Source: Phnomibacter ginsenosidimutans (GTDB lineage Bacteria; Bacteroidota; Bacteroidia; Chitinophagales; Chitinophagaceae). From it: a stretch of DNA of 32,000 bases. A program made the position numbers and the translations under genes. The stretch spans positions 3,044,658 through 3,076,657 of the forward strand of contig NZ_CP046566.1 of NCBI RefSeq assembly GCF_009740285.1. Direction: 5' to 3'. This document shows positions 1 through 29,426 of this stretch, in pieces; within the stretch, counting starts at the first letter, position 1; each line of letters starts with the position of its first letter. The notes below the pieces were generated by a model. The model worked only from the letters and a program-made list of their open reading frames with translations, made no database searches and was not told where the DNA came from.

Positions 1-1831
1 GAAATTTCTTATGGCTATTAATAAGACCCAACCAGTCCTTTTCTATGTTGTATGGTTTTGAAACGATTTGCTCAATATTTAAACGCTGCCTGATTATCGT
101 TTTTAATTCTGCCAAACGCTGCAATTTGAGAAACAGTGTTGGGTTGGATTTACTGGGTTGAATAGAAGTGATCTCCTTTATAAAAAAATCTTCTTCTGAT
201 TGAGTAGTTAAAATGTCTTCATCAATAGGAAAACTTTCATCCATCGCTTTTGCCTTCATACGTTCCAACACTTCCTCAAATGGCAGTAAAGAATGTCCCT
301 CCATTGCCGCTTCTTCTAAAATAAATACTGAAAAGGCTCTTACTCGTTTCTCATCCAGATTATCTGTTAAGGCCGATTCTGCTGGCAAGGGGAACGCTGT
401 TTGAATTTTTTCAGGTGGCAACAGTGCTTTATCTACTTGACGAAAAGATATACCGAAGGCTTCAAATCTTGTCTTTTCATAAAGCAGGAAGAGGTTTTCT
501 GAAATCTCCTGCGTTGAACCAATTAAATCAACATGGTTTTCAATTATAAATTTTGCCTGGTCGTTATTTAATTGGCAACGGCTTATCAGTTTAAAAAACT
601 CTCTTTTTTTTGTAGGCTTTCCTTTCCAAATCCGCTGTGCAGTTGCATTGAATAATTTAGCTCCTCTCGTCTTTATATATTTTTCAGGATCTGCAATACT
701 TTCCTCAAAAATTGACCAAGGATTTGTTTGCAAAAGGTCTCCGTCTTTTTGAAGAATATATTTCTCAATTTCCCATGCAATTGTGTTGCCATCTTCTATG
801 TTCAATGCACTTAGCACGGGGCCCATTCCGGGAAAGGCTCCACGCATATCCCAGATAGCTGAAATTTCAGCATCAATCCAATCCAGTTCTTTCCTGAACG
901 ATTTTTCTAACAAAACCTCAGCTTTTTTCAAACTCTCAGCCATGTTCAACAATGAATCAATAGCCGTGTCGTGTTCAACCAATTCAGAGGCAAAAGAAAA
1001 TTGCTTATAATCCGATGCGAAGGCAGCATATTCTTTTAACTCAACTTCAATGCTGTTCTTCTTTATATACTCCAGAATATCGTGGTAAGGCAAGAGAAAT
1101 CCGTCAGGATTGTTGGCGGTCAATGTGTGTTCAACACATCTGTCCCAAGGATGGCTTTTGTGGCCGGTGTATCCCTTATCAAAATTGTAATCCAAAATTG
1201 CTCCGGGTTCATTTTTAACTTTGGCTACGCCAACTATTACTCTTTCGTTTGGTTCGGAAAATGGAGTGTCCTTACAATAAAAGAATATTAATGACTGACG
1301 CTTTTTAAGGCAACCGAAGAATGCATCCAGTAATATTTTCTGATTAGCAGGGTGCTGAACCCAAATATTTCCTTCAAAACCCAGTTTTTCGTCAACTTCC
1401 TGCTCTAAGTCCGCATCATAATCTAACTCAAAAACATGGGCCTTTTCAGAGAAATGTGGATTATCATCACTACCCTTATTCTTCATCATCCATAAAAATG
1501 GAACTGCATTAAAAGAATAAGGCTTGTGAAAGTATATGCCCGGCTTGAAATCCTTAAACATAGGATTGATCTTAGTCCAGGCATGTGTTAATTCTCTTGT
1601 GTAGCTATTTGGTGAAAGAAATGTGCCCTTCTCTGAAATGCAGGGTGGAAAGTTCTCTTCAGTTATTGTTGCATCGGATGGCTCAGTATCCGGGTTCTTT
1701 GTAGCATCTACACGAGGCAAAATTCTGCAAAATGAATTATCTAAAACACTACAACATGTTTTCCCGTTCCATTTATTATCATGCCAAGGTACTCTTGCTG
1801 ATAGGTGTTTTATTGGCAAACTTTTACTCAT
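1..1831 (-). CDS. Putative RecD-like SF1 helicase, N-terminal ~610 codons only (gene continues past the left edge of the window)
   Basis: Absent from the ORF track because no stop codon lies in the window. My manual minus-strand translation from ATG 1831..1829 (MSKSLPIKHLSARVPWHDNKWNGKTCCSVLDNSFC...) stays open to position 1. It begins with a Cys-containing N-terminal module. Further on, ...ISENLFLLYEKTRFEAFGISFRQVDKALL resembles the NPYxL...GIGFxxAD segment that precedes the ATPase core in RecD2/TraA-type helicases (recollection, not a search). It lies 18 nt downstream of the macrodomain gene on the same strand. Confidence 0.6.
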   Translation of the reverse strand, partial: MSKSLPIKHLSARVPWHDNKWNGKTCCSVLDNSFCRILPRVDATKNPDTEPSDATITEENFPPCISEKGTFLSPNSYTRELTHAWTKINPMFKDFKPGIYFHKPYSFNAVPFLWMMKNKGSDDNPHFSEKAHVFELDYDADLEQEVDEKLGFEGNIWVQHPANQKILLDAFFGCLKKRQSLIFFYCKDTPFSEPNERVIVGVAKVKNEPGAILDYNFDKGYTGHKSHPWDRCVEHTLTANNPDGFLLPYHDILEYIKKNSIEVELKEYAAFASDYKQFSFASELVEHDTAIDSLLNMAESLKKAEVLLEKSFRKELDWIDAEISAIWDMRGAFPGMGPVLSALNIEDGNTIAWEIEKYILQKDGDLLQTNPWSIFEESIADPEKYIKTRGAKLFNATAQRIWKGKPTKKREFFKLISRCQLNNDQAKFIIENHVDLIGSTQEISENLFLLYEKTRFEAFGISFRQVDKALLPPEKIQTAFPLPAESALTDNLDEKRVRAFSVFILEEAAMEGHSLLPFEEVLERMKAKAMDESFPIDEDILTTQSEEDFFIKEITSIQPSKSNPTLFLKLQRLAELKTIIRQRLNIEQIVSKPYNIEKDWLGLINSHKKF

Positions 1832-1849
1832 TATTTTAACATTTACATT

Positions 1850-2545
1850 TTAACTTTTATCGAATAACGATGTTTGAGCTTCCCCTCTCATTATAAAGGA
1901 AAAGCACTTCTCCATAGTTACTAAACCAATACCAGGCTCATTTATCAGGTTGATCATTGACTTGATAGACTTATTTTCAATAACGGTGGTTATTGTATTT
2001 ATCCTGTCCTTCCTTATACCTGTAACCTTTTGAATTTGGGCAGAACTAAATGAGCCCCATTTAACAGCAAATGATTCAAATAAATCATCCGGTGCTAATG
2101 GATCATACTCAAATATTTCGACCGGAATTTCACATTTTGATAAATAGCTTGACATAAGCTGATATACCTCATCTCTATCTAAGCCACCATTATGAGCTCC
2201 AAGTAAAGGAAAGGCAATTGATTCAATGCCTTGAACCTTGTATGTATCAAGAAATTTTTGAAGCCCTTTTTCAACGTATTCTAATTTGCTGGGATATTTC
2301 CAATGGAATTTTGTAGGAAAATTGAGAACCCAGGGTGCATCCGGCTCACCTTTATATAACCATAACTTACCAATTCCAATGAGTTTTGACTTGCAATGCT
2401 CTTTATACAAATCAAACATTTTCGGATACCTTAGCTTGTAAACCAAAGCTATTCCTTTCCCCATTACCCCAACGCAGTTAACGGTATTAACCACTACCTG
2501 TGCCTTTGTATTAAATATATTTCCTTTTACTAACTCTATTGCCAT
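1850..2545 (-). CDS. DarG-like macrodomain protein (putative DNA ADP-ribosyl glycohydrolase / antitoxin), short form with a C-terminal HhH-like tail
   Basis: 231 aa. GNIFNTKAQVVVNTVNCVGVMGKGIALVYKLRYPKMF and NFPTKFHWKYPSKLEYVEKGL closely match the DarG macrodomain signature as I recall it (NTVNCVGVMGKGIAL...; FPTKxHWxxPSKL). The start lies 1 nt after the stop of the DarT-domain gene. Confidence 0.8.
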   Translation of the reverse strand: MAIELVKGNIFNTKAQVVVNTVNCVGVMGKGIALVYKLRYPKMFDLYKEHCKSKLIGIGKLWLYKGEPDAPWVLNFPTKFHWKYPSKLEYVEKGLQKFLDTYKVQGIESIAFPLLGAHNGGLDRDEVYQLMSSYLSKCEIPVEIFEYDPLAPDDLFESFAVKWGSFSSAQIQKVTGIRKDRINTITTVIENKSIKSMINLINEPGIGLVTMEKCFSFIMRGEAQTSLFDKS

Positions 2546-2546
2546 T

Positions 2547-5500
2547 TCAATTCAGATTATATAGCTCCCATTTTGTATTTTTAATTTCATCCTGAAAGTA
2601 AACTTTCAAAGAAGTGTGGTTTTCAAATTTGATATTCAAACTTGGATATGCACATATCATTGATTCAGTTGCATTGATAACATTCCCACTTATCATTTCA
2701 TATTTTGTGCCGGATGGGAATTGAACGATAAACATTCCAGATTTGTACCCATTACCACTGTAATCCGTTGAAATATTCAATATGCCATCACGGTATTCAC
2801 ATTCAATATCTTTGTTCTGATTGTGGTAAATATCATCACTATAAGAAGATACTTTGATTCTATTGGCGTATTGACTTTTTTCACCAATCCTTCTTATCAA
2901 TTCATCCTTATCATTCTCGCTTCTTACTATAATATCAATATTTATGAAGCTGGTAAAATCAAACTCATCTTTTATTAAAAATTCTTGTTGTGAATAATTA
3001 ATATAAGTTCTATAGTCGCCATCAGATGTATTGAATATAGTGCTATACACATCACTAAAATTAAACTTAGATAACATTTGCAAGACAGGTTTTACTACCG
3101 CCCAATTCGTTTGCATATTACCATTGCTCATATAGCATTTACCACGCAACTTCAATAAAACTTCCTGTAAATTAAATCGAAAAAAAACAGGAATGGGACA
3201 TTTAGGCAATCCTAATCTTAACGCACTTTCATAATATTTATTGGTTATATCTAACCCCAAACATTCATTATAAAACTGAGTAGGTGTTTGTGGCCTGAAA
3301 TAGAATCTTGCAAATTCATGAGCTGTATGTCGCCTGCCAACTACAGCACCTGCTGCATCTGCAAAACCAATAGCCTTATTACGGCTGAGTATCTTTTTAT
3401 TCTTAATTATTTCAATTGCGTTTGTAAGGTGTGTAAAATGATAAATGTAACCTGACCAACTTGATTGCTTTGATTTTAGATTTAAATAAAGTTCTAATTC
3501 AGGAATACTGTTCACTATTTGAATTATATGCTCTCTTATGGATAAGGGAATTGAAATGTTTTCTTGCAGATAGAAGTAATCCCAATACATCATGAACTCA
3601 TCAACCATTTCAACTGTGAAATTGATTGATGTATTTTGAGAAATATATTCCCAATCCAAAAAGTCTTTAAATAGCCGCAACCCATTTATGTCAAAAACTA
3701 ACATACCTGAAATGATCTTCCAGTTTAAAAACTCCTTGAATTTTAGGAGTATTTCAGGGGATGGGGAGAATTTTTCTGATTCGCAAAGCAAATTCCATTC
3801 TATTAAATCTTGATAAGTAGTTAGTATGGTTATGTCATTAAAATCCAGCTTCCAATTTTTGATAAAAGACATCCAATCCCATTTGCTTTTATATTCTAAT
3901 AATAATTCTGGATGCTGTTGAAAGTCTAAATTTTGATGACTTGAAAGAGTAGCCCACAGATCGTTATTCAAAACATTATTTGAAACAAATAATTTAATAA
4001 CATCGGGTGTAATATGTATGGAATCACTATTCAATATGGCATGCCAATTTGAATCAGTGTGCTGTACAAACAGACTTAACAAATTAAGATCAAAGAGTAA
4101 ATTTTTACTACTGCTCAAAAGCGACCAATTCCATTGTTTATCTGAAAGTGTAAGCAATGTATCATTGTCAATCCAACTTGCCTTTGAAAGCAAATTGTAA
4201 TCCCAGTCTTTATCCTGAAGTTGTAATAAAAGCTCTTTGTCTACTTTTAAGAAACTATGAGAAGATAAGGCGTGGTAATCCCAGGGTTTTGAGCCATTTT
4301 CTAAAACAAATTCTTTTGTCAACTCAAAACGTGGGTGAGAAGATAGTTTTTCCCAATCCCAAGGATAGTTGATAAACTTGCTAACTAAAGCTGGATATAA
4401 TGTTACTTCATAACGAACTGATAATGCACCCCAATCTATTAGGCTTGAAAACCTATTTAAGCGTCTTGAATCAAATTCAGTAATTCTTTTTTCTTTATTT
4501 GAATTTGTAAGTAATGCACTTGCTGATGATAGTATATGCCAATCCCATTTATCCTCAAATTCTGAAATAATTCGTTCATTCCAAGTAATATTATTTATCG
4601 AGCTAAGAGCAGTAAAATCCCATTCATCCTTATATGCATAAAGATATTCAAGCGTTCTATCCAGCCATTGTCTTGTGTCTCTATAAACTACTTTACTGAA
4701 TTGAAAAAAAGAAGAAAGAGTACTATTGCTTGAAAGTACCTTCCAATTTATTTTATCTGAATATGTTGATAGAAAACTATGGTCAATTGGGATAACTTTT
4801 GAAGAGCTGATATAATTCCAGTCCCAGGTGAAAATATCAAACTGAATAGTTTCTTGAATAAATTTCCAAAGGTCGTTAGGCAATATTTTTTTTGTTATAA
4901 CAGACCATGACTCATTTATAACAGATTCTGGTGACTGTGAAATCAAAACTGCCAGCGATTGTAATTTATTTGTTGGGGTCAAGTCGATTGCCGAAACGAA
5001 TTTATCAATTAGATAAGGCCAATGAATGTATGAAGCATATTCAACTTGAAAATCATCATCCAATAATAGCTCAGAGCTTATTCTATTTTTAGTTACCAAA
5101 CTCCAATCCCAGAAAAGGTCAGGATTATCAAGGATGAAATCCAGCTCACATTTTTCTGATAAATAATTCCTTAGACCTTCAGCAGATGGCAATTGTAATA
5201 ATTCATTCTCATCCGATAATACAATTTCATTAAGAGATTCTACCGATGCCTCTCTAAGAACTGAAACCCAATTAATGGCTATGTTATGAGAATTAAGGAG
5301 TTCCCGATTTAATAGTATTTGTTCAAAAGTAAATTCAGTCGATACATGCTTTGATATTATCACCAGCATCTCTTTTTCAACTGCCCATTGAATAAAGAAG
5401 GCCAAATTATCAGCCACAAGTTCCGATGGAACACTATTGATTAAAATATTTAATGCTAATTTATCTTGGTGCTTGCGAATAAATTCAGAAGACCATTTTA

Positions 5501-5804
5501 AGTCTTTACGATTACAAATAGCACTAAAGTTCCAAGGAAATGTTTCATTTAACTCAACTATAGAGATATTATCAATAGAATGGGATACATTTTCATAGCC
5601 GGCTTGATTTTTAACTAAGTTGTTAAATTTTTCAAATAGGACTGATGACCACTTGAGATTTTGATTTGCTTCAATTCCCGGAATCTTTTCATTGCCCCAA
5701 AACAATAAGTCATTGTCAGATAGAAACTCAAATATTTCTGAATTTAAAATTACATCCTGATCCCTTCCAATTTTGAAGTTGGTTCTTTTGAGAGAATTAA
5801 TCAA
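2547..5804 (-). CDS. Large repeat protein with a DarT-like (DUF4433) ADP-ribosyltransferase domain near the C-terminus
   Basis: 1085 aa with a TTG start in the track. Residues ~35-770 carry about 20 repeats with the core W-[DN]-[WYF]-x-x-[LI]-S (FWDWSLV, TWDWNYIS, KWDWHILSS, PWDWEKLSS, PWDYHALSS, DWDYNLLS, QWNWSLLSS and others). Residues ~783-965 (nt ~2910-3458) match DarT motifs: IYHFTHLTNAIEIIKNKKILS (YHxTH), HEFARFYFRPQTP (VPFYF-like) and QQEFLIKDEFDF...IDIIVRS (catalytic-Glu AEFLV-like). A ~120-aa C-terminal extension (nt ~2550-2909) has no motif I recognise. The true 5' end is uncertain (see finding at 5805-6071). Confidence 0.8.
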   Translation of the reverse strand: MINSLKRTNFKIGRDQDVILNSEIFEFLSDNDLLFWGNEKIPGIEANQNLKWSSVLFEKFNNLVKNQAGYENVSHSIDNISIVELNETFPWNFSAICNRKDLKWSSEFIRKHQDKLALNILINSVPSELVADNLAFFIQWAVEKEMLVIISKHVSTEFTFEQILLNRELLNSHNIAINWVSVLREASVESLNEIVLSDENELLQLPSAEGLRNYLSEKCELDFILDNPDLFWDWSLVTKNRISSELLLDDDFQVEYASYIHWPYLIDKFVSAIDLTPTNKLQSLAVLISQSPESVINESWSVITKKILPNDLWKFIQETIQFDIFTWDWNYISSSKVIPIDHSFLSTYSDKINWKVLSSNSTLSSFFQFSKVVYRDTRQWLDRTLEYLYAYKDEWDFTALSSINNITWNERIISEFEDKWDWHILSSASALLTNSNKEKRITEFDSRRLNRFSSLIDWGALSVRYEVTLYPALVSKFINYPWDWEKLSSHPRFELTKEFVLENGSKPWDYHALSSHSFLKVDKELLLQLQDKDWDYNLLSKASWIDNDTLLTLSDKQWNWSLLSSSKNLLFDLNLLSLFVQHTDSNWHAILNSDSIHITPDVIKLFVSNNVLNNDLWATLSSHQNLDFQQHPELLLEYKSKWDWMSFIKNWKLDFNDITILTTYQDLIEWNLLCESEKFSPSPEILLKFKEFLNWKIISGMLVFDINGLRLFKDFLDWEYISQNTSINFTVEMVDEFMMYWDYFYLQENISIPLSIREHIIQIVNSIPELELYLNLKSKQSSWSGYIYHFTHLTNAIEIIKNKKILSRNKAIGFADAAGAVVGRRHTAHEFARFYFRPQTPTQFYNECLGLDITNKYYESALRLGLPKCPIPVFFRFNLQEVLLKLRGKCYMSNGNMQTNWAVVKPVLQMLSKFNFSDVYSTIFNTSDGDYRTYINYSQQEFLIKDEFDFTSFINIDIIVRSENDKDELIRRIGEKSQYANRIKVSSYSDDIYHNQNKDIECEYRDGILNISTDYSGNGYKSGMFIVQFPSGTKYEMISGNVINATESMICAYPSLNIKFENHTSLKVYFQDEIKNTKWELYNLN

Positions 5805-6022
5805 ATAAGAACCGAATTTAGGGTCGTTGAATGATAATTTAAAATCAGACTCATTTTTAAGTAACCTGTTAACTACTGCAATAGTGTCAATGTATGGAAA
5901 TAGAGCTTCAATATTTAGAATGAAATAATTTATTGAATACGTAGAGCAGATAAGTGACCAATCCCAGCTTAGCTGGGGGTTATTAAGAATTAAATTGCCT
6001 GACTGTATTTCTCCAAAAGATA

Positions 6023-7264
6023 TTAGCGTGTGAAGGTCAAAGGTAATGTTTGAATTTCCCTTTCGATAAATTCAAATGAAACTCTATTTGTAACTTTTTT
6101 CCAATCTTCAATTGCATAAACATCAATAATGGTTGTTAATAACTGTTCCAGTTCTTTTTGGTCAATTCTTTCCAAAAACACATCAATATCCCAAGGAAAT
6201 TGATTGATGGTATTTATAATGTATGGTATTTCAACTTTCTTTGAAAGGCGAGACCAGTCCCAGTAATCCGCATAAGCTTCGATATTCAATATCAATACTT
6301 CATCAGGACAATTCTGTATTACCTGATACCATACTGCGTTACTTGTAACTTCTTCACTTGATAACAATTCAAACCAATTGTTATCCCATACTACTCTTGA
6401 ATCACACAGCACTGTTTGCCAATTGACATGTTTGGTGAATTGGGAAATATCTGCCGCATGTATTTCTTTAATATCTCTAAGATATAACTGATAACGGAGC
6501 AACAGAAGCCAATCAGCAAACAATTTTGAATTTGCTTCTTTTAAAATTATTTCATCTAATTCAGGCGAAGGTTTGTCATTTAAAACTACTTCTATTCTGT
6601 AAACTTCATCCTCTTTTATTAAGGAAAGGGATATGTGTGAAATACTTTTTTCATAATTAAGCACCGCCTCATTTACCCATTGAATTTCAATATTCTTATT
6701 CTCTTCCAGTTCTGAATTAAAATTTAGAAGTGCCTTGTGAAGAAATACATTTTCATGCTGGTCTTCAGGACTAAAATAGTAAGGCTTTATTTCCTTCGAA
6801 TTATATATTTCAGAAAAAAGGCCATACTTAGAAAAATGAAATAGATTGTCAAAATTTTCCCAGTCAAAGAGAAGATAATGCTCATTAAAACTGATAACAC
6901 CTTCGTAAAACAAGTGCTTAACTCCTTTTTGTCTTGCTTCTAACCCCCAATGGGTTGTAGAAATAATCAGATTACCATCTTCATTTTTATGAGTTGATAT
7001 CAAATGATATTCTGTAAGTGTATCAAGTAATGAAGAGAATATTCCAGCTTCAGCTATGTCAAAATACACCTGCTCCTCTTCATTGGCTTCAACAGCAAAA
7101 CCTAAAATGGAGCCTAATTCATTATAACCAATTGTATCATTATACAAGTACAAAAATGAAAGAATAATATTGTCAAACTCAGTGAGAGGATATGCCTTTC
7201 TAAAAAGCACCTTATGCTTTGCAACCCTAATTGGCCAGTCCTCTTTTATCGTTATAAGATTCAT
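6023..7264 (-). CDS. Hypothetical protein with the same W-D-W/LS repeats in its C-terminal third
   Basis: 413 aa. The C-terminal part carries HVNWQTVLC, NNWFELLSS, DYWDWSRLS, FPWDIDVF and IEDWKKVT, the same repeat core as the downstream DarT-domain protein. Its ATG overlaps the helicase stop (ATGA at 7261-7264), implying translational coupling. Confidence 0.75.
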   Translation of the reverse strand: MNLITIKEDWPIRVAKHKVLFRKAYPLTEFDNIILSFLYLYNDTIGYNELGSILGFAVEANEEEQVYFDIAEAGIFSSLLDTLTEYHLISTHKNEDGNLIISTTHWGLEARQKGVKHLFYEGVISFNEHYLLFDWENFDNLFHFSKYGLFSEIYNSKEIKPYYFSPEDQHENVFLHKALLNFNSELEENKNIEIQWVNEAVLNYEKSISHISLSLIKEDEVYRIEVVLNDKPSPELDEIILKEANSKLFADWLLLLRYQLYLRDIKEIHAADISQFTKHVNWQTVLCDSRVVWDNNWFELLSSEEVTSNAVWYQVIQNCPDEVLILNIEAYADYWDWSRLSKKVEIPYIINTINQFPWDIDVFLERIDQKELEQLLTTIIDVYAIEDWKKVTNRVSFEFIEREIQTLPLTFTR

Positions 7265-10200
7265 TGTTTTAAGGATTTGGCATCAAATGATTTTACAGCA
7301 CCATTAGGATGTTGCTGAATTGTTTCATAAACCCTGTTATAAATGGCATGTTTTCTAAAATGCTGAGAATTGCCAACAATTATTAGTAGCCTTTTTGCCC
7401 TGGACAATGCCACATTCAGACGATTGGGAAATTCTGCAAACCCTAAACTTTCTTGGGATGGATAACCATTCTCTGGGTACGCTTCCATATTAGGAGCCTG
7501 ATTTGGAAATTCAGCTATGGAATTGCTTCTAACCAATGATACTACTACAATATTCCTCTCCATGCCTTGAAAACGGTCAACTGGCGAGATTCTTAGCGGA
7601 ACTTCGGGATACTTATCCTTCAACTTATTTAGTAACCCAGCTTGAGCACCGTAGAAAGTAATTATGCCAATTTGCTTCTGCTCTATATCACCTGATGGCC
7701 AATAATCCACAAAGTTTTTATATCCGGGTGATTTCTTGAAATAACTTAAAAGCCAATCAATCGCCTGAACTTCTCCATAGTTAACTCTGGATGTACCGCT
7801 TTTTATTTCCGGTGATACTACATCAAGCCAAATAACATGTGTTTGTTTGTTGGCTGTAACACCATGATAGCGATTCAGCGGATGTGACATATCTTCCGAA
7901 TTGGCTATCTCATCTGGAATACCACATTCTAAACCTCCGTCAGCAATATAAAACTGTTTTATAGTTTCATTTATCGCTGGATGCATTCTGTATTGGACAT
8001 TAAATGAGGACTTTAAGTTTTTATCAATTCCAACAAATAACTTTTCAAAATGGGATACTGAAAATTCCTCTTTGTTTTTCTTAATATAACTTATAAGGTC
8101 ACTGATTTCCCTTCTGTTTTTTTCATCTTTCGTTTTTTTCGACATCATTTTAAGATTATCGATAAACTCAGCAGTATCGACCATTGGAGGCAACTGTCTA
8201 TGATCGCCAATTACAACAGCCTTTTTTCCGTAGAGGCATGGTAATGCTAATTCAGGAGGTGAGGCTTTACTCGCCTCATCCTGTACAACAAGATCAAACT
8301 CAATGTTTCTTTTCTTTAATGCAGCAATAGTGTTCTTATTTATAGAATGACGAAAAGCATCATATTCTTTGGTGTGTAATACATTGCAATAGTCTGAGAA
8401 GAATCTTGTAAATTTCTGTTCTGAATTTTCTTTACCAATTGAACTACAAGTTGCTCCTATTACATTAGCATTTTGTATGTAGTTATTAAAAAATAACGAC
8501 CGTAATTGCTCATTTGCCTTTGTCAGATAGGTTATCCACTTTTCAGATAAATCGCTGTTAAATGTGGTTTGTTTTCTCCTTGCCCTATTACCGATTAAAG
8601 TAATCCAGTCTTGTAAAATATTAGTAGCTGATTTATCTTCAGTCAACTCCTTATTGCCAAATAGAACCCATTGTTTGAGGGATTCCAATGAAAATCTTCT
8701 TCCTTCTTTATCCAATTTGTCATCAGAGCCAAACCTAATTGGTTTAATTAATAAATGTGTTTGGGCCCGGAGTTTATCTAATGCGTTATCAACAGCAAGG
8801 TTAGTCTCTGATGTGACAAGAATCCTATATGGCTCTTTCTTAACAGAAATATTAGAACGGATGTGTTGCCATATCAACTCCGCAATTGCTGTAGATTTTC
8901 CAGTACCGGGAGGACCTTGTATTAGAAAAAAGTCATTTGCCAATAGGCACTTTGCAATCGATTCTTTTTGCCGGTCATTAATGTTTTTCGAAAGCAATGA
9001 AGCATCAATTTCATTGATTGTTTTTTCGTATTCAGCAGTACGTAAAATATCACCAGGGAAACTTCTGGCCTTTGATGAATCCACTAATATATCCCGGAGG
9101 CTTTCATTTAATATCTTCTGCTTAGTAATTGAAAATATAATGTCAATTGTATTTGATAGTCTTTTTATTTTATCCCTTTCGCCCTTTAAAGTGCAGCAAA
9201 CTTTAGTCAAAGTATCTGGAACACAAATTGTATCCCTCATTGATTCCATTTCAATCACAATATTGGGATAGCTAATCTTTATAATATTCCCGAAAGGGAC
9301 AGGCTTTTTATCATCCCACAAAGAAATTTCCTCACCTCTTATGTAATTAAATTTGCTATTGATTTCAGCCTCAAATTCTTCTTGTTTAAAGTTTAGAAAA
9401 TATTTTAGTTTGCCTTCTTGCAGTTCTTCAAATACATACTGCATATTATCATTCAATAGCGGATCAATTGAATCTTTTATTTTTGCAACAAGTAATTGCA
9501 ACAAGTCATGATTGTCAAAAAAGCAGAAGAATGATAGTTTTAAACCATTGTTAGACAATTTAGTTTTGATGGCCGGTATTTGCTGTAATTCCTCCTGTAT
9601 TTCCAATAAAGGTGAGGCATATTGTAACTTTATCTTAAAACCATGCTCAGCTCCCTTGTTGTCAATATCTGCAATCTGTAATGCTGATAAATATTCAATT
9701 CCAGAAGTTAATTCATCTTCATTAGTGAAGTCAAATGAAACTGTTTCCTTCTCAACGCTAATATTAAAGCGTTCATCCTGAACAGAATTTTGGAAATGTT
9801 CCAAAAATAAACTTCTATCAATTTGAAATATGTGTTGGTGCTTTATAGTAAAAGAATCGGGACCAAAATATCGTTCAAATACTTTCTTGTAATGAAATAT
9901 CTCAAAACGAAAATCTGATAAAGTAATATCTGATTCAAATGTTAGGTGAAATTCATTATTTATTGGTGTTGGGAGAATCACACCCATTTTATCGTTCTTC
10001 TTATCTTCAGAAGAAAAGAATATCTTTTTAGATTTTCTTGTATCCAAAAAATTCTGAAATAAATCTTCCTTTATTGTGAATATTAAGCGATGGTGAGATT
10101 TGTGATAAGCAGTGTTTTCTTTTATAAAGTTTAGTGCAGGTTCCCTTAAAAATATATCCTGAATAATCAGATTGGCAAAATGACCGTGACAAGAGACAGA

Positions 10201-10770
10201 TTGAATACCTAATGTCTGAATTAAATATGAACTTGCGATTTCATATTGCTTTTGTATATAGTATTTAGAAGGCTGGATTTTAAAGATGCCTCCAATAACA
10301 GCTGAACGGGTAAAGCCATTTAGACTTTGTATTTTATCATCAATTCGCTTTATGTCTGAAAGAGTGGCAACTATTTGACCTTCCTTGTTAGGCTGTTGCT
10401 CATTTATGTCAGCTAACCATTTGTATGGATTTTCTTTTAAACTTACATGACCTGAAAAACATGGCTTATAATCAAACTCAAAATAATTTGCATCCGCTAC
10501 TTCTTTTAATTCATCTGTATGCTGTGGACTTCTGGATGAGTTATACAGTAAATAGCCATCCTTAATATTTATATCGTTTTGTAAAATCCCAGGAAAGGAT
10601 TTTTCTAATGAATGAATAATACTTGAGAGGGGATTTCTTTGTTCGATTGTGAAGTGAGCCAATCCAGTTTTATCCGTCTTTTTAAACTCAATTGCAAATG
10701 GTTCTGAATACTGATTAACGAATATTTCTTGAGCTTTAATAAATGCTTTCCAGCTGTTGATTGTTGACAT
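7261..10770 (-). CDS. Superfamily 1 helicase, Upf1/DNA2-like (AAA_11/AAA_12 class), with a ~580-aa uncharacterised N-terminal region
   Basis: 1169 aa. Motifs seen: Walker A LIQGPPGTGKST, motif II VVQDEASKA, motif III VIGDHRQLPPMV, then NVQYRMHPAI, IGIITFYGAQ, VDRFQGMERNIVVVSLVRSN and NVALSRAKRLLIIVGN. Confidence 0.9.
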   Translation of the reverse strand: MSTINSWKAFIKAQEIFVNQYSEPFAIEFKKTDKTGLAHFTIEQRNPLSSIIHSLEKSFPGILQNDINIKDGYLLYNSSRSPQHTDELKEVADANYFEFDYKPCFSGHVSLKENPYKWLADINEQQPNKEGQIVATLSDIKRIDDKIQSLNGFTRSAVIGGIFKIQPSKYYIQKQYEIASSYLIQTLGIQSVSCHGHFANLIIQDIFLREPALNFIKENTAYHKSHHRLIFTIKEDLFQNFLDTRKSKKIFFSSEDKKNDKMGVILPTPINNEFHLTFESDITLSDFRFEIFHYKKVFERYFGPDSFTIKHQHIFQIDRSLFLEHFQNSVQDERFNISVEKETVSFDFTNEDELTSGIEYLSALQIADIDNKGAEHGFKIKLQYASPLLEIQEELQQIPAIKTKLSNNGLKLSFFCFFDNHDLLQLLVAKIKDSIDPLLNDNMQYVFEELQEGKLKYFLNFKQEEFEAEINSKFNYIRGEEISLWDDKKPVPFGNIIKISYPNIVIEMESMRDTICVPDTLTKVCCTLKGERDKIKRLSNTIDIIFSITKQKILNESLRDILVDSSKARSFPGDILRTAEYEKTINEIDASLLSKNINDRQKESIAKCLLANDFFLIQGPPGTGKSTAIAELIWQHIRSNISVKKEPYRILVTSETNLAVDNALDKLRAQTHLLIKPIRFGSDDKLDKEGRRFSLESLKQWVLFGNKELTEDKSATNILQDWITLIGNRARRKQTTFNSDLSEKWITYLTKANEQLRSLFFNNYIQNANVIGATCSSIGKENSEQKFTRFFSDYCNVLHTKEYDAFRHSINKNTIAALKKRNIEFDLVVQDEASKASPPELALPCLYGKKAVVIGDHRQLPPMVDTAEFIDNLKMMSKKTKDEKNRREISDLISYIKKNKEEFSVSHFEKLFVGIDKNLKSSFNVQYRMHPAINETIKQFYIADGGLECGIPDEIANSEDMSHPLNRYHGVTANKQTHVIWLDVVSPEIKSGTSRVNYGEVQAIDWLLSYFKKSPGYKNFVDYWPSGDIEQKQIGIITFYGAQAGLLNKLKDKYPEVPLRISPVDRFQGMERNIVVVSLVRSNSIAEFPNQAPNMEAYPENGYPSQESLGFAEFPNRLNVALSRAKRLLIIVGNSQHFRKHAIYNRVYETIQQHPNGAVKSFDAKSLKQ

Positions 10771-10801
10771 AAGCCTTTTGTTTTTTCTTGATTTATCACT
10801 T

Positions 10802-10936
10802 TATAAAAACCAAAGGATCTCTTTACCGTGGTCGGGTAGTTTGTCGTGGGTGAAGTATGGGAATATCTCGGCCACCATTTCGGGGTACTTGATGGTAACG
10901 GGCAGGTTCTGCTGGCTTACGTCTTTCCAATAGATG
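10802..10936 (-). pseudogene. Possible 3'-terminal remnant of a truncated gene
   Basis: A short GC-richer patch sits between two AT-rich segments. The minus frame reads ...WKDVSQQNLPVTIKYPEMVAEIFPYFTHDKLPDHGKEILWFL*, which looks protein-like, but an in-frame stop lies just upstream and there is no start codon. Its identity is unknown. Confidence 0.3.
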
Positions 10937-11437
10937 CTTCATAAATAATTTATTAATAGTATTTTATACTTAGCAAAATGCATACAAATAAGTATTTTAA
11001 ATTGTAGTTGTATTACCAAATACAATTCCGAGAAATTTTTCTTAAACCAGTTAATGCGAAAGCATCCTTTTACAATGAAATAATAAATATTATACCCTTT
11101 CAATTATACTTAGATAATCGCATCTGCCAATTAAAAATAAATAGATAAAGCAATTCATACAGACTATTACAACTATCACCAAAACAAAACTTGTTGCGAT
11201 TTCAAACAATAATTGTCAGAAAAATATGGTTAACTATTTTAATACACTGCCGGTGAGCTGACACCAGTATTGGGTGAAAGCAAAAAGTGTCAGGCCAAAA
11301 CATCACAAATCGAATGATAGCAGGGATAATGAGGTTTGTCAAACGCAATTTAAGTGTATCAGGCTGAAGAATTATCAGAAAAGCTATTTTTTACCGCGGA
11401 TACTTGGCCAGGGTATTTTCAACGTTTTCGCATCATC

Positions 11438-12835
11438 TTACTCCCCCTCAGCCAGCATTGCGTCGCCCAATTGTTTCTTTGCACTAGCCCCCATTTTCTT
11501 CAGCTCCTCCACACGGCGAACCAAATTGCCTTTGCCGGTGCTGAGTTGTTTGAAAGCGATGTCGTAAGCCGATTGCGCATCGCCTATTTTCTTGCCCACA
11601 TCTTGCAGGGTATCGGTGAAGCCCACAAACTTGTCGTAGAGGTCCCCGGCTTTTTCTGCAATGGCGATGGCGTTTTGGCTTTGCTGTTCTACACGCCAGA
11701 GGTCGGCAATGATTTTGAGCACCGCCAGTAAGTTGGTGGGGCTTACTAACAGAATGCGTTTGTCATAAGCATATTTCCATAACTGGGTATCCTCTTTCAT
11801 GGCCTCCAGGAATGCCGCTTCAATGGGCATAAACATAATCACGTAGTCGAGTGCCAGTGCGTACTTGGGGTAGTTTTTCCGGCTCAACCCATTGACATGG
11901 TTATAGATGCTTTGAATATGCTCTTGCATGGCCTGCTTTTGTTCAGCAAGGTCATCCGCAGACACATAGCGATCCCAGGCAAGCAATGATACCTTGGAAT
12001 CTACGATTACCTTTCGTCCATCCGGGTAATGGAGGGTAACATCCGGCTGCAACCCTTTGCCGTGCTCATCCTTTATGATGTTGCCTGCAGCATCTTTGAT
12101 AAACTCCTGCGTAAAATATTCCCGCCCTTTGGTAAGTCCGCTATGATCGAGGATGCTCTCTAATAGCATTTCGCCCCAATTACCTTGTTGCTTCTTGTTG
12201 CCTTTGAGGGCAGTGGTTAGGTTGTTTGCCTCTTGCCCTATCATTTGCGTGGCATCCACCAGACGTTTTACTTCGGCAGACAATGAAAAACGCTCCTTGC
12301 TTTCTTTATCGTAGGTGTCCTCCACTTTCTTCTTAAACTCAGTCATTTCATTTTTCAGCGGCTGCAGTATTTCTGTGATGCGCCTGTCGTTTGTTTCGGC
12401 AAACTTCCTGGAGTTGGTTTCTAAAATGTCGTTGGCCAAATTTTGAAACTGAATACGCATGCTGGCACCCATTTCCTGCATTTCCCGTTGCTTGTCTTCA
12501 AGCGCTTTGTTGGCTGCAGCTAGCTGCGTTTGCAGCATGGTTGTTTGATTTTGTGCAGCAGCATACGCTGTTTGTAAATCGAAATACTTCTGCTGTTCGG
12601 CTTCCAGCAATTGCAGTTTACCCTGAGCCAGGTTAGTACTGGCCAGGTATTCGTCACGTTCCATCCGTAGCAAAACATTGTTTTTTTCGAGCTCCTCTTT
12701 TTGGGTTGTTACCTGCGAGAGCATCTGCTCAACGCTGGTAAGCTTTTGCTTCATCAGCATCTTGCTGATCAACCAAGCGGCAGCAGCGCCTGCCATAAGG
12801 GCTAATAAGGCAGTCGTCAACAGTTCGTTCGTCAT
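11438..12835 (-). CDS. rmuC: DNA recombination protein RmuC
   Basis: 465 aa. It has an N-terminal TM helix, a long coiled coil, then QGNWGEMLLESILDHSGLTKGREYFTQEF...LQPDVTLHYPDGRKVIVDSKVSL, which is typical of the RmuC family. Confidence 0.9.
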   Translation of the reverse strand: MTNELLTTALLALMAGAAAAWLISKMLMKQKLTSVEQMLSQVTTQKEELEKNNVLLRMERDEYLASTNLAQGKLQLLEAEQQKYFDLQTAYAAAQNQTTMLQTQLAAANKALEDKQREMQEMGASMRIQFQNLANDILETNSRKFAETNDRRITEILQPLKNEMTEFKKKVEDTYDKESKERFSLSAEVKRLVDATQMIGQEANNLTTALKGNKKQQGNWGEMLLESILDHSGLTKGREYFTQEFIKDAAGNIIKDEHGKGLQPDVTLHYPDGRKVIVDSKVSLLAWDRYVSADDLAEQKQAMQEHIQSIYNHVNGLSRKNYPKYALALDYVIMFMPIEAAFLEAMKEDTQLWKYAYDKRILLVSPTNLLAVLKIIADLWRVEQQSQNAIAIAEKAGDLYDKFVGFTDTLQDVGKKIGDAQSAYDIAFKQLSTGKGNLVRRVEELKKMGASAKKQLGDAMLAEGE

Positions 12836-13501: not shown

Positions 13502-14197
13502 ATGCCTCAAAATGAAGTAGAATCTCATCCTTATTTGGATATCCAAATGTCTAAAGCAAATTTTCATCATGGAAGTTTCACTACCCTTCTACTGGGCACT
13601 TTTCCCATTTATGAGCTCACCAAATCTGAGCCAATTGAAGCAGCAGGTGTAACCAAACGAACAGAATGGACACAACAAGCAAATTTCAAATTCTTCTACG
13701 GCAGCAAGGGTAATTCCTTCTGGAAAATACTGGCCAATATTGCAGGAACTGAATTCCCCTCCAGTACAGAATCGTGTCTGAAGATACTTGCACAACAAAA
13801 TATATTCATAGGAGACGTCATCGCATCTGCCTCAAGAATTGGTTACAGTTCCAAAGACCAAGATTTGACTATTAATAGCCTGAACCGGGCTCTACAAAAC
13901 ACACTTGACTCGCTTACTTCAATTCAACAGATTGTATTTACAAGTGATGTAGCAAAAAGAGTATTCACTGAAATCATAGGAATTCCGAACGCAAGAAGAA
14001 TTCAGACAATGAACCTGAATAATCGCAACATTAGCATGTATACATTACCCACACCTGCGGGCAACGGTAGATCGGTCCGTAGATTTTTTAAAGATTTCCC
14101 TCCAACTGCAGAAGAAATAGTCTTGATTGAAAAAAAGCTCCCTTATGCTTTGGCATATCGTGAAAGACTGTATCGTCAGTTTCTGCAGGTAATCTAA
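13502..14197 (+). CDS. Uracil-DNA glycosylase superfamily protein (family-6 / deoxyinosine-glycosylase-like)
   Basis: LLLGTFP...FFYGSKGNSFWKILANI and the C-terminal YTLPTPAGNG resemble UDG-superfamily motifs A and B (GSfPs...YYg...NxFW; lPStSpAN). I placed the start at ATG 13502. The track start 13439 is a non-ATG codon upstream of the palindrome, so an ORF from there would read through it. Confidence 0.55.
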   Translation: MPQNEVESHPYLDIQMSKANFHHGSFTTLLLGTFPIYELTKSEPIEAAGVTKRTEWTQQANFKFFYGSKGNSFWKILANIAGTEFPSSTESCLKILAQQNIFIGDVIASASRIGYSSKDQDLTINSLNRALQNTLDSLTSIQQIVFTSDVAKRVFTEIIGIPNARRIQTMNLNNRNISMYTLPTPAGNGRSVRRFFKDFPPTAEEIVLIEKKLPYALAYRERLYRQFLQVI

Positions 14198-15216
14198 CCG
14201 TTTATTTTATTGCCATATAGTGTCAAGACAGCCTTGGCCGATGATATCATTTTTTCAGCTAGCCAGGCAGGCTTTAAAACCTTTACTGCAGGCCCGTAGC
14301 TGAGAATCAGCATTTCCAATTCTGGACTCGTATAAACATACAAGTCGATTAGTAGCGATTTGCCATCGTTGGTTAAAGTGGCCTTTTGGCTATGATGGAG
14401 CGGATTGGCTTGTATTTGTGCTATAAAATCATTGAATTCCAATTGGATCAGCTCGGGGGCTTTTTCATGCCAGTGCCAAACACCTATACTGTATTTGAAA
14501 TAGTCAGTTGGTGAGAAGTCGGGATCCACAAAATACGGTTCATCACAAGTCTCCACATTTCGGATGGAACTCAGTGAAAAAACAAGTGTTTTATGAGGTG
14601 AACTCGATTGGTGAGCATATGCGACTAGATACCAGCGATCATGAAACTGTTTGAGCAAATATGGTGAAACAACCCGTTTCCTTTCTTCCGTATCCCGCAT
14701 GCTTTTATAGGTCATCAAAAGTGTGCGGCCCTCAATAATAGCGGTCAATAAAGGATGAATCCAAATTGCACCACTATCGTTTTGTGCAGCATTAAAAGCA
14801 ACAATTTGTTCCGTCACCTTTCGTAAGCTACCAGAAGCATTTTCGTTCAGCACTTTTTGAACAGTCTGAGAAAATTTCTCCTGCAATGGCGACCCTGCGA
14901 AAAGGCCAAAAACACTAGCCGCAATAGTGAAGAGCTGTTTGTCTTCGTCGGAAATAAAATCTTCGAATACTTTGTACCCCTTTTGGGTATAATGATACCC
15001 ATCTGAAACGGTGAACTTAACTGTTACATTATCAACATCGGCCAATTCATTAAGTGACTTGATGTATTTGCTCAACATGTCCTCACCTATTTCATCTCCA
15101 CCCTTCGCAGTCACCAAATCATTGAGCAACGAAACGAATTCCTTTCGGCTATTGATCTTCCTGCCACTGGACAAGAGATAATCCATAACACGCAAACGGT
15201 AGTCGCTGAAGTTCAT
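14194..15216 (-). CDS. WYL-domain transcriptional regulator (HTH-WYL-WCX architecture)
   Basis: VVSPYLLKQFHDRWYLVAYAH...LVFSLSSIRNVE is a classic WYL domain. The C-terminal LILSYGPAVKVLKPAWLAEKM looks like a WCX domain. I placed the start at ATG 15216 (MNFSDYRLRV); the track begins at TTG 15258. Confidence 0.8.
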   Translation of the reverse strand: MNFSDYRLRVMDYLLSSGRKINSRKEFVSLLNDLVTAKGGDEIGEDMLSKYIKSLNELADVDNVTVKFTVSDGYHYTQKGYKVFEDFISDEDKQLFTIAASVFGLFAGSPLQEKFSQTVQKVLNENASGSLRKVTEQIVAFNAAQNDSGAIWIHPLLTAIIEGRTLLMTYKSMRDTEERKRVVSPYLLKQFHDRWYLVAYAHQSSSPHKTLVFSLSSIRNVETCDEPYFVDPDFSPTDYFKYSIGVWHWHEKAPELIQLEFNDFIAQIQANPLHHSQKATLTNDGKSLLIDLYVYTSPELEMLILSYGPAVKVLKPAWLAEKMISSAKAVLTLYGNKING

Positions 15217-15370
15217 AATAGACAGTTGTTTGGCTTTTCGAAAAAATTGATACAACAAAGTGATTAAATCAAATATACAGATGTGCCGGTATACGATTCA
15301 TTTGAGACTCAACACGCATTACATCAATTCCAAAAACATTATACCACAATTTTTTGAAAAGCTTTCTAAA

Positions 15371-22099: not shown

Positions 22100-23698
22100 A
22101 TGACGAGAAATATGAAGACATATATACGTGGAATTGGTGTTCAAAATTTTAAAACTTATTCCAAATATCAATTTTGTAAATTTTCCTCCATTTCATTCCT
22201 TATTGGGAAAAATGGTGTCGGAAAATCCTCTTTTCTACAAGCAGCTCAATTCATCTTTAAATATCTTAAAAACCCAACGGCATTTAGATACTTTCCTGAC
22301 GATGATTTTCAGATGATTAAAAATGAAAAAGTTGTAAATGATGAGGTTTTCTCAGACAATTTTACTCATCTTACTCAATTCATAAACGATACGTCTAAAC
22401 CTTTGATAATTGACCTATTGATAGATTTTGGATTTGAAAACGACAAGTTTGTAATTAGCCAATTAAAGTATCGGTTCGTCTTTATCGTTATGACACTAGA
22501 CGATGAACAATATTTATTCCTTGATGAATTAAATCTATTTGATACTGAAACAAATGACCTTTTGTTTACAAACAATTACAAGCAACATAATGAAAGCTAT
22601 AATATAAACCTTACAAAAGAAGGCAGAGTTTTTTTATTGACATCGTTCTTAAAATATATCAACAAAGAAGATTTGCCAAAGCCAACCAGAGGCAACTTAA
22701 ATGTGCTATTGGGAAAAGAAACTATAAATGATAATAAGAACTCATTAAAGACAAAGTTTGGTCACCTTGAAAAGCAATTTCTATATGAAATTGATGAAAT
22801 TGAATTTTCATCTCCAAAACAGAGGTTTATGCCTGAACATGGGTTGGAGCCAGGCGCTATTCTTACAGAGGTTAATCTTTTTAATGATGAAATCACAAGT
22901 TATTTCTCAAACTGCTCTCACGAATTAAAGGAAGTGCTAAATCTAACTTATCAAGGTATAAAAGACAGCTTCCAATTAAACTCAAAAAAGTTGCAAGAAA
23001 TTGAAACAATTAAAATATCAGAAATCAGTAGTAGGAAAAGGACTTTAAACAAAGATGAAGTGTATTTAAAATGCTTTTCTAACCCTAATTCAATAGAAGA
23101 CGAGTTCTTAATTAATAATCTCAAACGCTTTCATTTTAAAGGGGTCCCTGAGATATTGCTGATTTCTAAGGACGACAAAAAATATAAAGCTGTATTAACT
23201 TCTGACCAAGCAACGAAAATAAACTTGATTGATGAGGGAAGCGGTTATTGGACGCTAACCTACTTAATACTTATATTAGGAAACAAGGTGAACAAGAATA
23301 AAATTATACTTATTGAAGAACCAGAAACATTTCTTCATCCAAATTTTCAAGCGAATTTAGCAGACTTGTTTATTGAAGCAACAGAAAAATTTGGTTTACA
23401 ACTTATCATAGAAACCCATAGTGAATACTTAGTCAAAAGGTTGCAAAGACGTATTTCACAAACACATAGAAAAGACAAGCTAAAAACTAATCTAATTGAA
23501 GAACAAGAACCCATTCCATATGATATATTTCCTTCTGACATTTCAATAAACTACATCCATGATGAGAAATCATCAAATGATATAATAAACATTCAGATTG
23601 ATAAAGACGGCGATTTGGATAGACCTTTCCCTACTGACTTTATGGACGTTTCAATCAATGAAGATTTATTGTTCTTCAAACTAAAGAATTTAAACTGA
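22100..23698 (+). CDS. ABC/OLD-like AAA ATPase (AAA_15/AAA_21 class)
   Basis: 532 aa. Motifs seen: Walker A LIGKNGVGKSS, Walker B / D-loop IILIEEPETFLHP, and His-switch IIETHSEYLVKRLQ. The C-terminal tail (~70 aa) is uncharacterised. Confidence 0.8.
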   Translation: MTRNMKTYIRGIGVQNFKTYSKYQFCKFSSISFLIGKNGVGKSSFLQAAQFIFKYLKNPTAFRYFPDDDFQMIKNEKVVNDEVFSDNFTHLTQFINDTSKPLIIDLLIDFGFENDKFVISQLKYRFVFIVMTLDDEQYLFLDELNLFDTETNDLLFTNNYKQHNESYNINLTKEGRVFLLTSFLKYINKEDLPKPTRGNLNVLLGKETINDNKNSLKTKFGHLEKQFLYEIDEIEFSSPKQRFMPEHGLEPGAILTEVNLFNDEITSYFSNCSHELKEVLNLTYQGIKDSFQLNSKKLQEIETIKISEISSRKRTLNKDEVYLKCFSNPNSIEDEFLINNLKRFHFKGVPEILLISKDDKKYKAVLTSDQATKINLIDEGSGYWTLTYLILILGNKVNKNKIILIEEPETFLHPNFQANLADLFIEATEKFGLQLIIETHSEYLVKRLQRRISQTHRKDKLKTNLIEEQEPIPYDIFPSDISINYIHDEKSSNDIINIQIDKDGDLDRPFPTDFMDVSINEDLLFFKLKNLN

Positions 23699-23699
23699 A

Positions 23700-29126: not shown

Positions 29127-29205
29127 TCATTTTGATAATTAAAATTGACGTGTTGGTGGAACTTAGAAACATGCAAAATGAAGCATAACGCAGCAGTCTA
29201 AAATG

Positions 29206-29262
29206 CCCAAAAAAAATGTCTCTAAAATCACACCAAAACGTGGTGTGATTTTAGAGACATTT
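29206..29262 (-). terminator. Intrinsic terminator candidate downstream of tRNA-Ser
   Basis: Perfect 22-bp stem (29214-29235 / 29241-29262) with a 5-nt loop. On the minus strand it is followed by a run of 8 T, the complement of the A-run 29209-29216, whose last three positions fall inside the stem. Confidence 0.55.
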
Positions 29263-29339
29263 GCACTTTTCCAGAAACTCAAATAATGTATAAAACGTTG
29301 ATTTGCAGCGTTTTGCAGCGTTTTTCGCAGTGTAAAAAG

Positions 29340-29426
29340 CAGAGAGGAAGGGATTCGAACCCTCGATACAGTTTCCCGTATACCCGCTTTCCAGGCGAGC
29401 CCCTTCAACCACTCGGGCACCTCTCT
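29340..29426 (-). tRNA. tRNA-Ser (anticodon GGA)
   Basis: The minus strand reads AGAGAGG-TG-CCCGAGTGGTTGAAGGGG-CTCGC-CTGGAAA-GCGGG-long variable arm-GAGGG-TTCGAAT-CCCTT-CCTCTCT-G. It is a class II tRNA with cloverleaf pairing checked by hand. No CCA is encoded. Confidence 0.9.

Follow-up and report, generated by a model that had tools for sequence, protein, structure and literature searches.

A frameshifted copy of a conserved helicase-giant DarT-macro cassette in Phnomibacter ginsenosidimutans, a probable defence system found mainly in Bacteroidota

Does a DarT-type ADP-ribosyltransferase gene that stands among helicase-like genes in Phnomibacter ginsenosidimutans belong to a defence system of its own, and which of its neighbours are part of it? 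The locus lies in a stretch of 32,000 nucleotides (contig NZ_CP046566.1, positions 3,044,658 to 3,076,657; hereafter the window) of the complete, 4.37-Mb genome of this bacterium. A reading made from the sequence alone (the sequence-only reading) had described a five-gene operon in which a DarT/DarG-like pair is bracketed by two helicases, and had proposed a helicase-coupled, sensor-gated ADP-ribosylating defence. We followed up this reading computationally. The conserved unit consists of three genes, encoding an Upf1-like SF1B helicase, a giant DarT protein and a short DarG-type macro protein. We consider it probable that positions 1850-10770 of the window hold a frameshifted copy of a three-gene defence cassette that is conserved but uncharacterised, is present mainly in Bacteroidota and would act by helicase-dependent, self-gated DNA ADP-ribosylation.

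The conserved cassette and its frameshifted copy

On the minus strand of the window, open reading frames (ORFs) of 1169 aa (7261-10770), 413 aa (6023-7264), 1085 aa (2547-5804) and 231 aa (1850-2545) follow one another, and a fifth frame of 610 codons is open from 1831 past the left edge. The junctions agree with the sequence-only reading: a 4-nt ATGA overlap at 7261-7264, a 1-nt gap at 2546 and an 18-nt gap at 1832-1849. Its AT-rich block was also confirmed (GC content 0.31-0.37 over 1-11000, compared with 0.30-0.51, mostly 0.36-0.51, in the remaining window), as were its domain calls, with Pfam matches to AAA_11 and AAA_12 (~3e-33 each), DarT (PF14487, 2.6e-19) and Macro (8.4e-16). PADLOC labelled the window proteins MkoA (3.8e-97), DarT (8.5e-10), DarG (4.6e-55) and PDC-S68 (1.9e-159). 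The deposited annotation lists a macro domain protein (QGW28905), a 1085-aa "DarT ssDNA thymidine ADP-ribosyltransferase family protein" (QGW28906), a 413-aa hypothetical protein (QGW28907) and a DEAD/DEAH-box helicase (QGW28908). The ORFs and their junctions were thus as described, but the number of genes and the boundary of the operon had to be revised.

QGW28906 and QGW28907 are the two halves of a single gene, the giant DarT gene (gene 2 of the cassette; 2547-7264, minus strand), which encodes 1572 aa if intact. Homologues of the 1085-aa ORF are 1555-1610 aa long at 100% query coverage, and this ORF falls short of them by the combined length of the 413-aa ORF and the 218-nt "gap" between the two. 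The break lies at 6039-6041, where the window has a run of three Ts and relatives have four: positions 6035-6043 of the minus strand read CCTTTGACC in the window and CCTTTTGACC in three homologous loci (L010, L015 and L094). The upstream frame stops at 6023-6025; with one T inserted into the run, the two pieces join into one ORF of 1572 aa. In the metagenome contig L094, which is 99.2% identical to the window across 10,672 aligned bases, the giant DarT ORF is intact, and the missing T is the sole indel in this alignment. The gene is intact in 64 of the 67 assessable species-level relatives; the other three are split at different sites, and a further split copy was found in the protein cluster. 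The "intergenic" positions 5805-6022 belong to the coding region, and the TTG start called at 5804 is an ORF-calling artefact. The separate 413-aa "repeat protein" and the 1085-aa "repeat-DarT fusion" of the sequence-only reading are, respectively, the N-terminal and C-terminal parts of the giant DarT protein.

A programmed frameshift or transcriptional slippage at 6039-6041 was considered and rejected: there is no slippery heptamer, the T run comprises just 3-4 bases, 64 of the 67 relatives are in frame, and L094 has four Ts despite its near identity. Judged from the sequence, the window copy would be either a recent pseudogene or the product of a homopolymer sequencing error. Real decay is somewhat likelier because a genuine deletion, marked by an Argonaute remnant at 10801-10935, lies next door. 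Because of the single-base frameshift, the cassette is probably inactive in P. ginsenosidimutans.

Linkage was assessed from both sides. A scan from the DarT side, with one genome per species, yielded 80 giant DarT loci, nearly all of them in Bacteroidota; a few came from metagenome-assembled genomes labelled Clostridia, Gammaproteobacteria, Desulfosporosinus and Puniceicoccaceae. The helicase gene lay immediately upstream and on the same strand in all 61 species-level loci with enough flank, and the macro gene downstream in 69 of 71. From the helicase side, a homology search with the N-terminus of the helicase returned just three matches owing to a word-index limit, and metagenomes were scanned with motifs of this domain instead. 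Of the 37 metagenome loci in which 1.5 kb or more of downstream sequence was available, 36 had the giant DarT gene after the helicase gene; the macro gene came next in 23 of 24. The trio is kept down to ~24% DarT identity, and the genes around it vary among relatives (BREX, type I restriction-modification, prokaryotic Argonaute (pAgo), GmrSD, NERD and a PIN protein).

These data bear out the core of what had been claimed for the locus. The DarT-type transferase adjoins a DarG-type macro hydrolase and is translationally coupled to an Upf1/DNA2-like helicase by the 4-nt overlap and the 1-nt gap; the link to the helicase is obligate in both directions, and the helicase and macro genes co-occur with giant DarT across genomes. 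A five-gene unit is not conserved; only the trio is kept.

The cassette is widespread in Bacteroidota and occurs in gut genera, namely Bacteroides, Parabacteroides, Phocaeicola and Alloprevotella. Intact copies are carried by Bacteroides gallinarum DSM 18171 (L038), Zeaxanthinibacter enoshimensis DSM 18435 (L025) and Chitinophaga silvatica (L035), all of them cultured. No homologue was found in phage records, and plasmid records held one distant cassette, on the 190-kb plasmid NZ_CP043645.1 of Hymenobacter sp. NBH84 (L092; 25% identity). There, an AAA-domain protein and a 1691-aa DarT-family protein are followed by a 98-aa hypothetical protein at the macro position, with a transposase gene nearby.

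Domain anatomy of the three proteins

The 1169-aa protein of gene 1 (7261-10770, minus strand) is an Upf1-like SF1B helicase (AAA_11 2.8e-33, AAA_12 4.4e-33). Its core motifs can be read from the sequence (Walker A GPPGTGKS, Walker B DEAS, GDHRQLPP and VALSRAK), and the ATPase motifs are invariant in a three-sequence alignment and conserved across 57 helicases of the family. The IGHMBP2 family model TIGR00376 matches at 1.1e-57 and the UvrD models of Pfam at 6e-4 or weaker, and the nearest solved chains are those of Upf1/Nam7, IGHMBP2, DNA2, Sen1 and ZNFX1. The PADLOC match to MkoA is restricted to the generic helicase core. The N-terminal ~590 aa are specific to the family and poorly conserved, and the first 580 aa have no match in PADLOC. 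Some relatives carry ~1400-aa variants of the helicase (3602-7810 in L065; L086) in which, judged by eye, the N-terminus is of the S1/OB type and the C-terminus resembles Ppx/GppA (ASKHA).

The giant DarT protein begins with a domain of 240 aa (6545-7264, minus strand) that was examined in an AlphaFold2 (AF2) model of residues 1-1190 of a homologue (P0001) with 92% identity to the window protein (mean pLDDT 90.6). It is predicted to be a winged helix set within long beta-hairpins. In Foldseek, aa 1-240 matched MarR-type and F93 winged-helix proteins with a probability of ~1.0 over 80-90 columns, at weak E-values (0.1-1).

An alpha-solenoid of ~1000 aa follows (3516-6544, minus strand), built of ~24-27-residue repeats with a W-D-W-x-x-L-S core that appear in alignments as a ladder of invariant Trp. 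The AF2 model shows an uninterrupted all-alpha array of short helices, for which Foldseek returned generic HEAT/ARM-like matches alone (TM ~0.1), and the region matched no Pfam or PADLOC family. We considered whether effectors are swapped on this solenoid and rejected the idea: in a representative library of 1.84 billion proteins, all 24 sampled matches of at least ~1440 aa carry DarT. Five shorter out-group proteins (1174-1325 aa) with the repeat motif carry UvrD, Ank, HIRAN or kinase domains; we take them to share just the motif with giant DarT.

The DarT ADP-ribosyltransferase domain (2850-3443, minus strand) contains the motifs YHFTH, GRRHTAH, ARFYFRP and QQEFLI, and the Pfam match to DarT covers aa 788-985 of the 1085-aa piece. 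In Thermus DarT, R51 and the catalytic E160 have assigned roles (PMC11543638). Our family profile aligned with the Thermus DarT structure 7OMV at an E-value of 0.0024; the main stretch pairs the RR motif with R51, and in a second, weak stretch QQE comes to lie next to the Q-A-A of the E160A crystal construct. QQE was found in all 81 family sequences. An AF2 model of the last 318 aa of giant DarT (pLDDT 78) gave Foldseek matches for the DarT core ranging from 5e-9 to 7e-7, including Thermus DarT (5e-9) and M. tuberculosis DarT; among the matches listed were thymidine-specific DarTs and no guanine-specific DarT1. The domain is divergent, and substrate and base specificity are therefore extrapolated from these relatives.

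The last ~85-100 aa (2550-2849, minus strand) are predicted to form a beta-sandwich, with AF2 strands at model residues 233-317 and a pLDDT of ~70-93 in this block; Foldseek gave weak Ig/CBM-like matches, none of them informative. In ~20 of the 80 genome loci, giant DarT reaches ~1700-1880 aa and carries at its C-terminus an additional HD phosphohydrolase domain, marked by an HDIGK motif (e.g. 7962-13088 in L018). Another type, represented by P0199 (1998 aa), carries a ~430-aa extension with no Pfam match.

Gene 3 (1850-2545, minus strand) encodes a 231-aa DarG-type macro hydrolase, composed of a macro domain (2108-2545) and a C-terminal tail (1853-2107). The closest macrodomains are those of the M. 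tuberculosis and T. aquaticus DarG proteins (5M3I, 2e-33; 5M31, 3e-32). The NFPTK-x-HW motif is kept, and K79-x-H81-W82 matches K80/H82/W83 of T. aquaticus DarG (TaqDarG), in which K80 is the catalytic lysine (PMC5179494). The DarG models matched the N-terminal portion alone (positions 2-144 of 329 for PADLOC; positions 1-155 of 338 for NCBIfam antitoxin_DarG, with 184.8 bits against a cut-off of 250), and the DarT-binding domain that forms the C-terminus of DarG is absent. In its place, the ~85-aa tail has no PADLOC match; it shows a conserved G-I-G hairpin and, in five of ten homologues, a weak, below-threshold match to the helix-hairpin-helix (HhH) model HHH_3. When L010 (macro gene at 10762-11433) was compared with the window, protein identity was 97% for the helicase, 92% for DarT and 57% for the macro protein; on this sequence comparison, the macro gene has apparently been swapped between cassettes by recombination. 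The low macro identity within an otherwise near-identical cassette favours enzymatic neutralisation over specific protein contact.

Neighbouring genes and the defence island

The frame at 1-1831 (minus strand) encodes the first 610 aa of a protein of the candidate defence type PDC-S68, which matches the PADLOC model over aa 5-607. It had been read as a RecD-like helicase. The protein type was correct, as the L012 orthologue of 1268 aa has AAA_30 (3.5e-25) and UvrD_C_2 domains at aa 630-1090; the helicase core lies past the edge of the window, and Pfam found no helicase domain in the 610 aa within it. PDC-S68 was within 8 kb of the cassette in just four of the 80 species-level loci, and its position and strand differed among them. 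On this count it was ruled out as a member of the operon, and the claim that two helicases bracket the DarT/macro pair falls with it; the gene is a neighbour that lies outside the core cassette. It follows the macro gene in the window, L012 and L094, lies between pAgo and helicase in L043, L096 and L097, and is also found near the cassette in L025 and L060. In six of these eight occurrences, the window included, it is accompanied by pAgo, which hints at a pAgo-PDC-S68 link.

Upstream of the helicase gene, 10801-10935 (minus strand) holds the last 44 codons and the stop codon of an Argonaute gene. They match the C-terminus of a 684-aa ORF in L012 (2410-4464; Pfam Piwi, 6e-16), which is intact and directly upstream of the helicase, as is the Piwi-domain Argonaute of L094 (4916-6970). 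Homology of the window to both loci breaks off at 10935. A co-directional, ~690-aa Piwi-domain pAgo is found upstream of the cassette in 12 of 81 loci, and abuts the helicase in nine of these. Its sequence identity is not coupled to that of the helicase: L016 has 70% identity in the helicase and 38% in pAgo, and L036 has 47% in both.

Just upstream of the deletion scar, 11438-12835 (minus strand) encodes a RmuC-family protein (Pfam 1e-99; PADLOC DRT-associated RmuC 4e-107), and a WYL/WCX-domain regulator, of a kind that often controls defence islands, is found at 14197-15258 (minus strand). The lowest GC content of the window (0.30) is at 22100-24536 (plus strand), where the stop codon of an AAA_15/AAA_21 ATPase gene (PADLOC NsnB 7e-28, AriA 9e-25) abuts the gene for a 278-aa protein with no family match; the two are a candidate two-gene defence system. 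A tyrosine integrase (27906-29426; Arm-DNA-bind_5, Phage_int_SAM_5 and Phage_integrase) adjoins tRNA-Ser(GGA). The sequence left of the integrase probably represents an island inserted at this tRNA gene, although no att repeat of tRNA-Ser was found within the window. The Rfam scan returned nothing besides the tRNA, and the promoter and terminator scan was uninformative (58 promoter-like sites compared with 51.4 expected).

Proposed function and comparison with known systems

What might the cassette do? Most likely, we infer, it defends against phage. In the mechanism that we propose, the DarT domain would transfer ADP-ribose from NAD+ onto the bases of single-stranded DNA (ssDNA), most likely thymidine, and the modification would block phage replication, as in DarTG. 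Solenoid and winged helix may restrain the transferase and serve as sensor or scaffold. The helicase, as ATP-driven obligate partner, would load on phage nucleic acid and feed ssDNA to the transferase; alternatively, it may switch the transferase on. The macro enzyme would steadily erase stray marks from host DNA and so neutralise by catalysis, not by binding the toxin. Of the helicase-coupled, sensor-gated ADP-ribosylating defence put forward in the sequence-only reading, the coupling gains from the obligate helicase link and the defence setting from the neighbours; the five-gene operon and the second helicase drop out. A stronger form of the proposal, which we hold to be somewhat less likely than not, is that the cassette constitutes a distinct tripartite immune family whose DNA ADP-ribosyltransferase is gated jointly by an Upf1-like motor and by the ~1000-aa solenoid as sensor. 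The position directly downstream of pAgo in ~15% of loci raises the possibility of guide-directed DNA ADP-ribosylation.

Several observations weigh against the proposed function. The RR motif, the counterpart of Thermus R51, is missing in about half of the family; the DarT domain of the window scored 20.2 bits with NCBIfam toxin_DarT, for which the cut-off is 150; and a single-sequence phmmer search of this domain against the PDB found no match. For the macro protein, the HHH_3 signal stayed below threshold in homologues and gave no match for the window protein itself. Two loci, L062 (Nibrella) and L085 (Spirosoma), have no macro gene in the downstream flank yet keep QQE, and an inactivated DarT, which we considered for these loci, was ruled out by this retained motif. 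The window copy as sequenced cannot yield full-length giant DarT. The target could also be RNA, since many helicases of the Upf1-like and MkoA-like kinds are RNA helicases. Domain identities, conserved catalytic residues, reciprocal synteny, translational coupling and the defence-island setting are computational results; the substrate, the trigger, the part played by the helicase and the anti-phage effect are inferred from them across the family.

The RNA possibility can be stated as an explanation of its own, in which the helicase would follow phage transcripts and RNA would be the substrate of the divergent DarT, as it is of the unrelated toxin CmdT. It draws on the helicases nearest to that of the cassette, which among characterised proteins are largely RNA helicases (Upf1, IGHMBP2, Sen1, ZNFX1 and the MkoA core), on what by eye resembles an S1-type N-terminal domain in some family helicases, and on the distance of the DarT domain from the NCBIfam equivalog. 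We judge it unlikely, as the macro partner is specifically of the DarG type, a DNA-thymidine ADP-ribosyl glycohydrolase, the best structural matches of the transferase are ssDNA-thymidine DarTs, and the winged-helix and HhH-like modules suggest DNA binding; moreover, DNA2, IGHMBP2 and Upf1 also act on ssDNA. Slightly less likely is that two unrelated systems merely adjoin, an orphan Mokosh-like helicase and an unusual DarTG pair. PADLOC labels MkoA, DarT and DarG separately, and defence genes tend to cluster; against this, the adjacency is reciprocal and near-universal (61/61 and 36/37), and stop and start codons overlap. The cassette also has no PLD nuclease (MkoB, MkoC), and its MkoA match is to the generic helicase core.

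The remaining explanations bring in the surroundings of the cassette. It might be an effector module of pAgo, with guide-directed recognition by the upstream pAgo activating helicase and DarT; the 12 of 81 loci with pAgo upstream, nine of them with pAgo abutting the helicase, and the remnant in the window speak for this. We think it very unlikely, given that ~85% of cassettes have no pAgo, that pAgo identity does not track helicase identity in L016 and L036, and that clustering in defence islands can account for the adjacency. An addiction or stability module of an integrative island, or growth control of the M. tuberculosis DarTG type, would take the place of immunity in another explanation. 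DarTG was first described as a toxin-antitoxin that controls replication, and the island in the window adjoins an integrase and tRNA-Ser; still, a helicase and solenoid apparatus of ~2700 aa is more than addiction would need, the genes around the cassette are consistently those of defence systems, and the recurrent splits and losses (three of 67 relatives and the window) fit the turnover of defence genes. We regard this account as highly improbable. Least probable of all is an operon of four genes (five by the earlier count) that includes the RecD-like PDC-S68 as a functional member, so that the DarT/macro pair would be fed by both helicases. In the window PDC-S68 lies on the strand of the cassette at a spacing of 18 nt, the close relatives L012 and L094 have the same layout, and the gene is also present near the cassette in L025, L043, L060, L096 and L097. 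These points are outweighed by its rarity within 8 kb (4/80, with differing positions and strands), its standing in PADLOC as a single-gene candidate and its closer association with pAgo (6/8) than with the cassette. We return to helicase-dependent, self-gated DNA ADP-ribosylation by the three-gene cassette as the preferred explanation.

If this explanation is correct, the ~1250-aa N-terminal region of giant DarT may be both sensor and brake of an autoinhibited effector that modifies nucleic acid, and the antitoxin would be purely enzymatic and interchangeable, as it has no DarT-binding domain and its gene was apparently swapped. A further defence system would be added to those of Bacteroidota, among which are gut genera that serve as prey of crAss-like phages. 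Annotation tools now label the cassette merely as "DarTG" and an orphan "MkoA".

Among known systems, PADLOC PDC-S68 has a clear member in the gene at 1-1831; PDC-S68 is a candidate system of a single gene, here adjacent to the cassette but no part of it. As for Mokosh types I and II, the helicase core strongly matches the MkoA models of PADLOC, with the match confined to this core. The cassette differs from Mokosh in that there is no PLD nuclease partner (MkoB) or fusion (MkoC), the effector is an ADP-ribosyltransferase, and the N-terminal 580 aa of the helicase match no Mokosh model. We ruled out membership in Mokosh, as neither Pfam nor PADLOC found a PLD domain in any cassette protein.

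The resemblance to DarTG2 (Thermus, M. tuberculosis and enteropathogenic E. coli (EPEC)) is closer. The two have in common the DarT fold with its H-x-T, Arg and catalytic Glu motifs, a location in defence islands and, next to the transferase, a DarG-type macrodomain that keeps the catalytic Lys. In DarTG2, however, the toxin stands alone with ~210 aa, whereas DarT here forms the C-terminal ~20% of a 1572-aa protein, and this domain fails the NCBIfam equivalog cut-off. The DarT-binding C-domain of DarG is replaced by the ~85-aa HhH-like tail, and an obligate third gene, the helicase, departs from the canonical two-gene organisation.

The sequence-only reading had not recognised its architecture as that of a described defence system. 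Our literature searches found no description of an Upf1-like helicase-giant DarT-macro architecture, and neither the solenoid region nor the helicase N-terminus is covered by a PADLOC v2 model. Helicase dependence of a DarTG system does, however, have a precedent in DarHTG (Liu-DS3; NAR 2026), which was validated experimentally and in which phage immunity depends on the ATPase of the helicase as well as on the active site of DarT (PMC13069673). Both systems follow a three-gene logic of helicase, DarT and ADP-ribose hydrolase with an obligately linked helicase. According to the same paper, DarH is a UvrD-like SF1A helicase without a 2B domain and DarG3 has an ARH fold, in contrast to the Upf1-like SF1B helicase with its 590-aa N-terminal extension and the DarG-type macrodomain of the cassette; the text of the paper also describes no N-terminal extension on its DarT (PMC13069673). 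The phylum survey outlined there combined a DarT HMM with PSI-BLAST using the helicase and counted ~2.6% of Bacteroidota (PMC13069673), a figure that may include the giant DarT family. If our proposal holds, the helicase dependence of DarT would recur in a second, unrelated set of proteins (SF1B in place of SF1A, macro in place of ARH). By analogy, then, the cassette would work most like DarTG or DarHTG, and DarHTG is the closest validated precedent.

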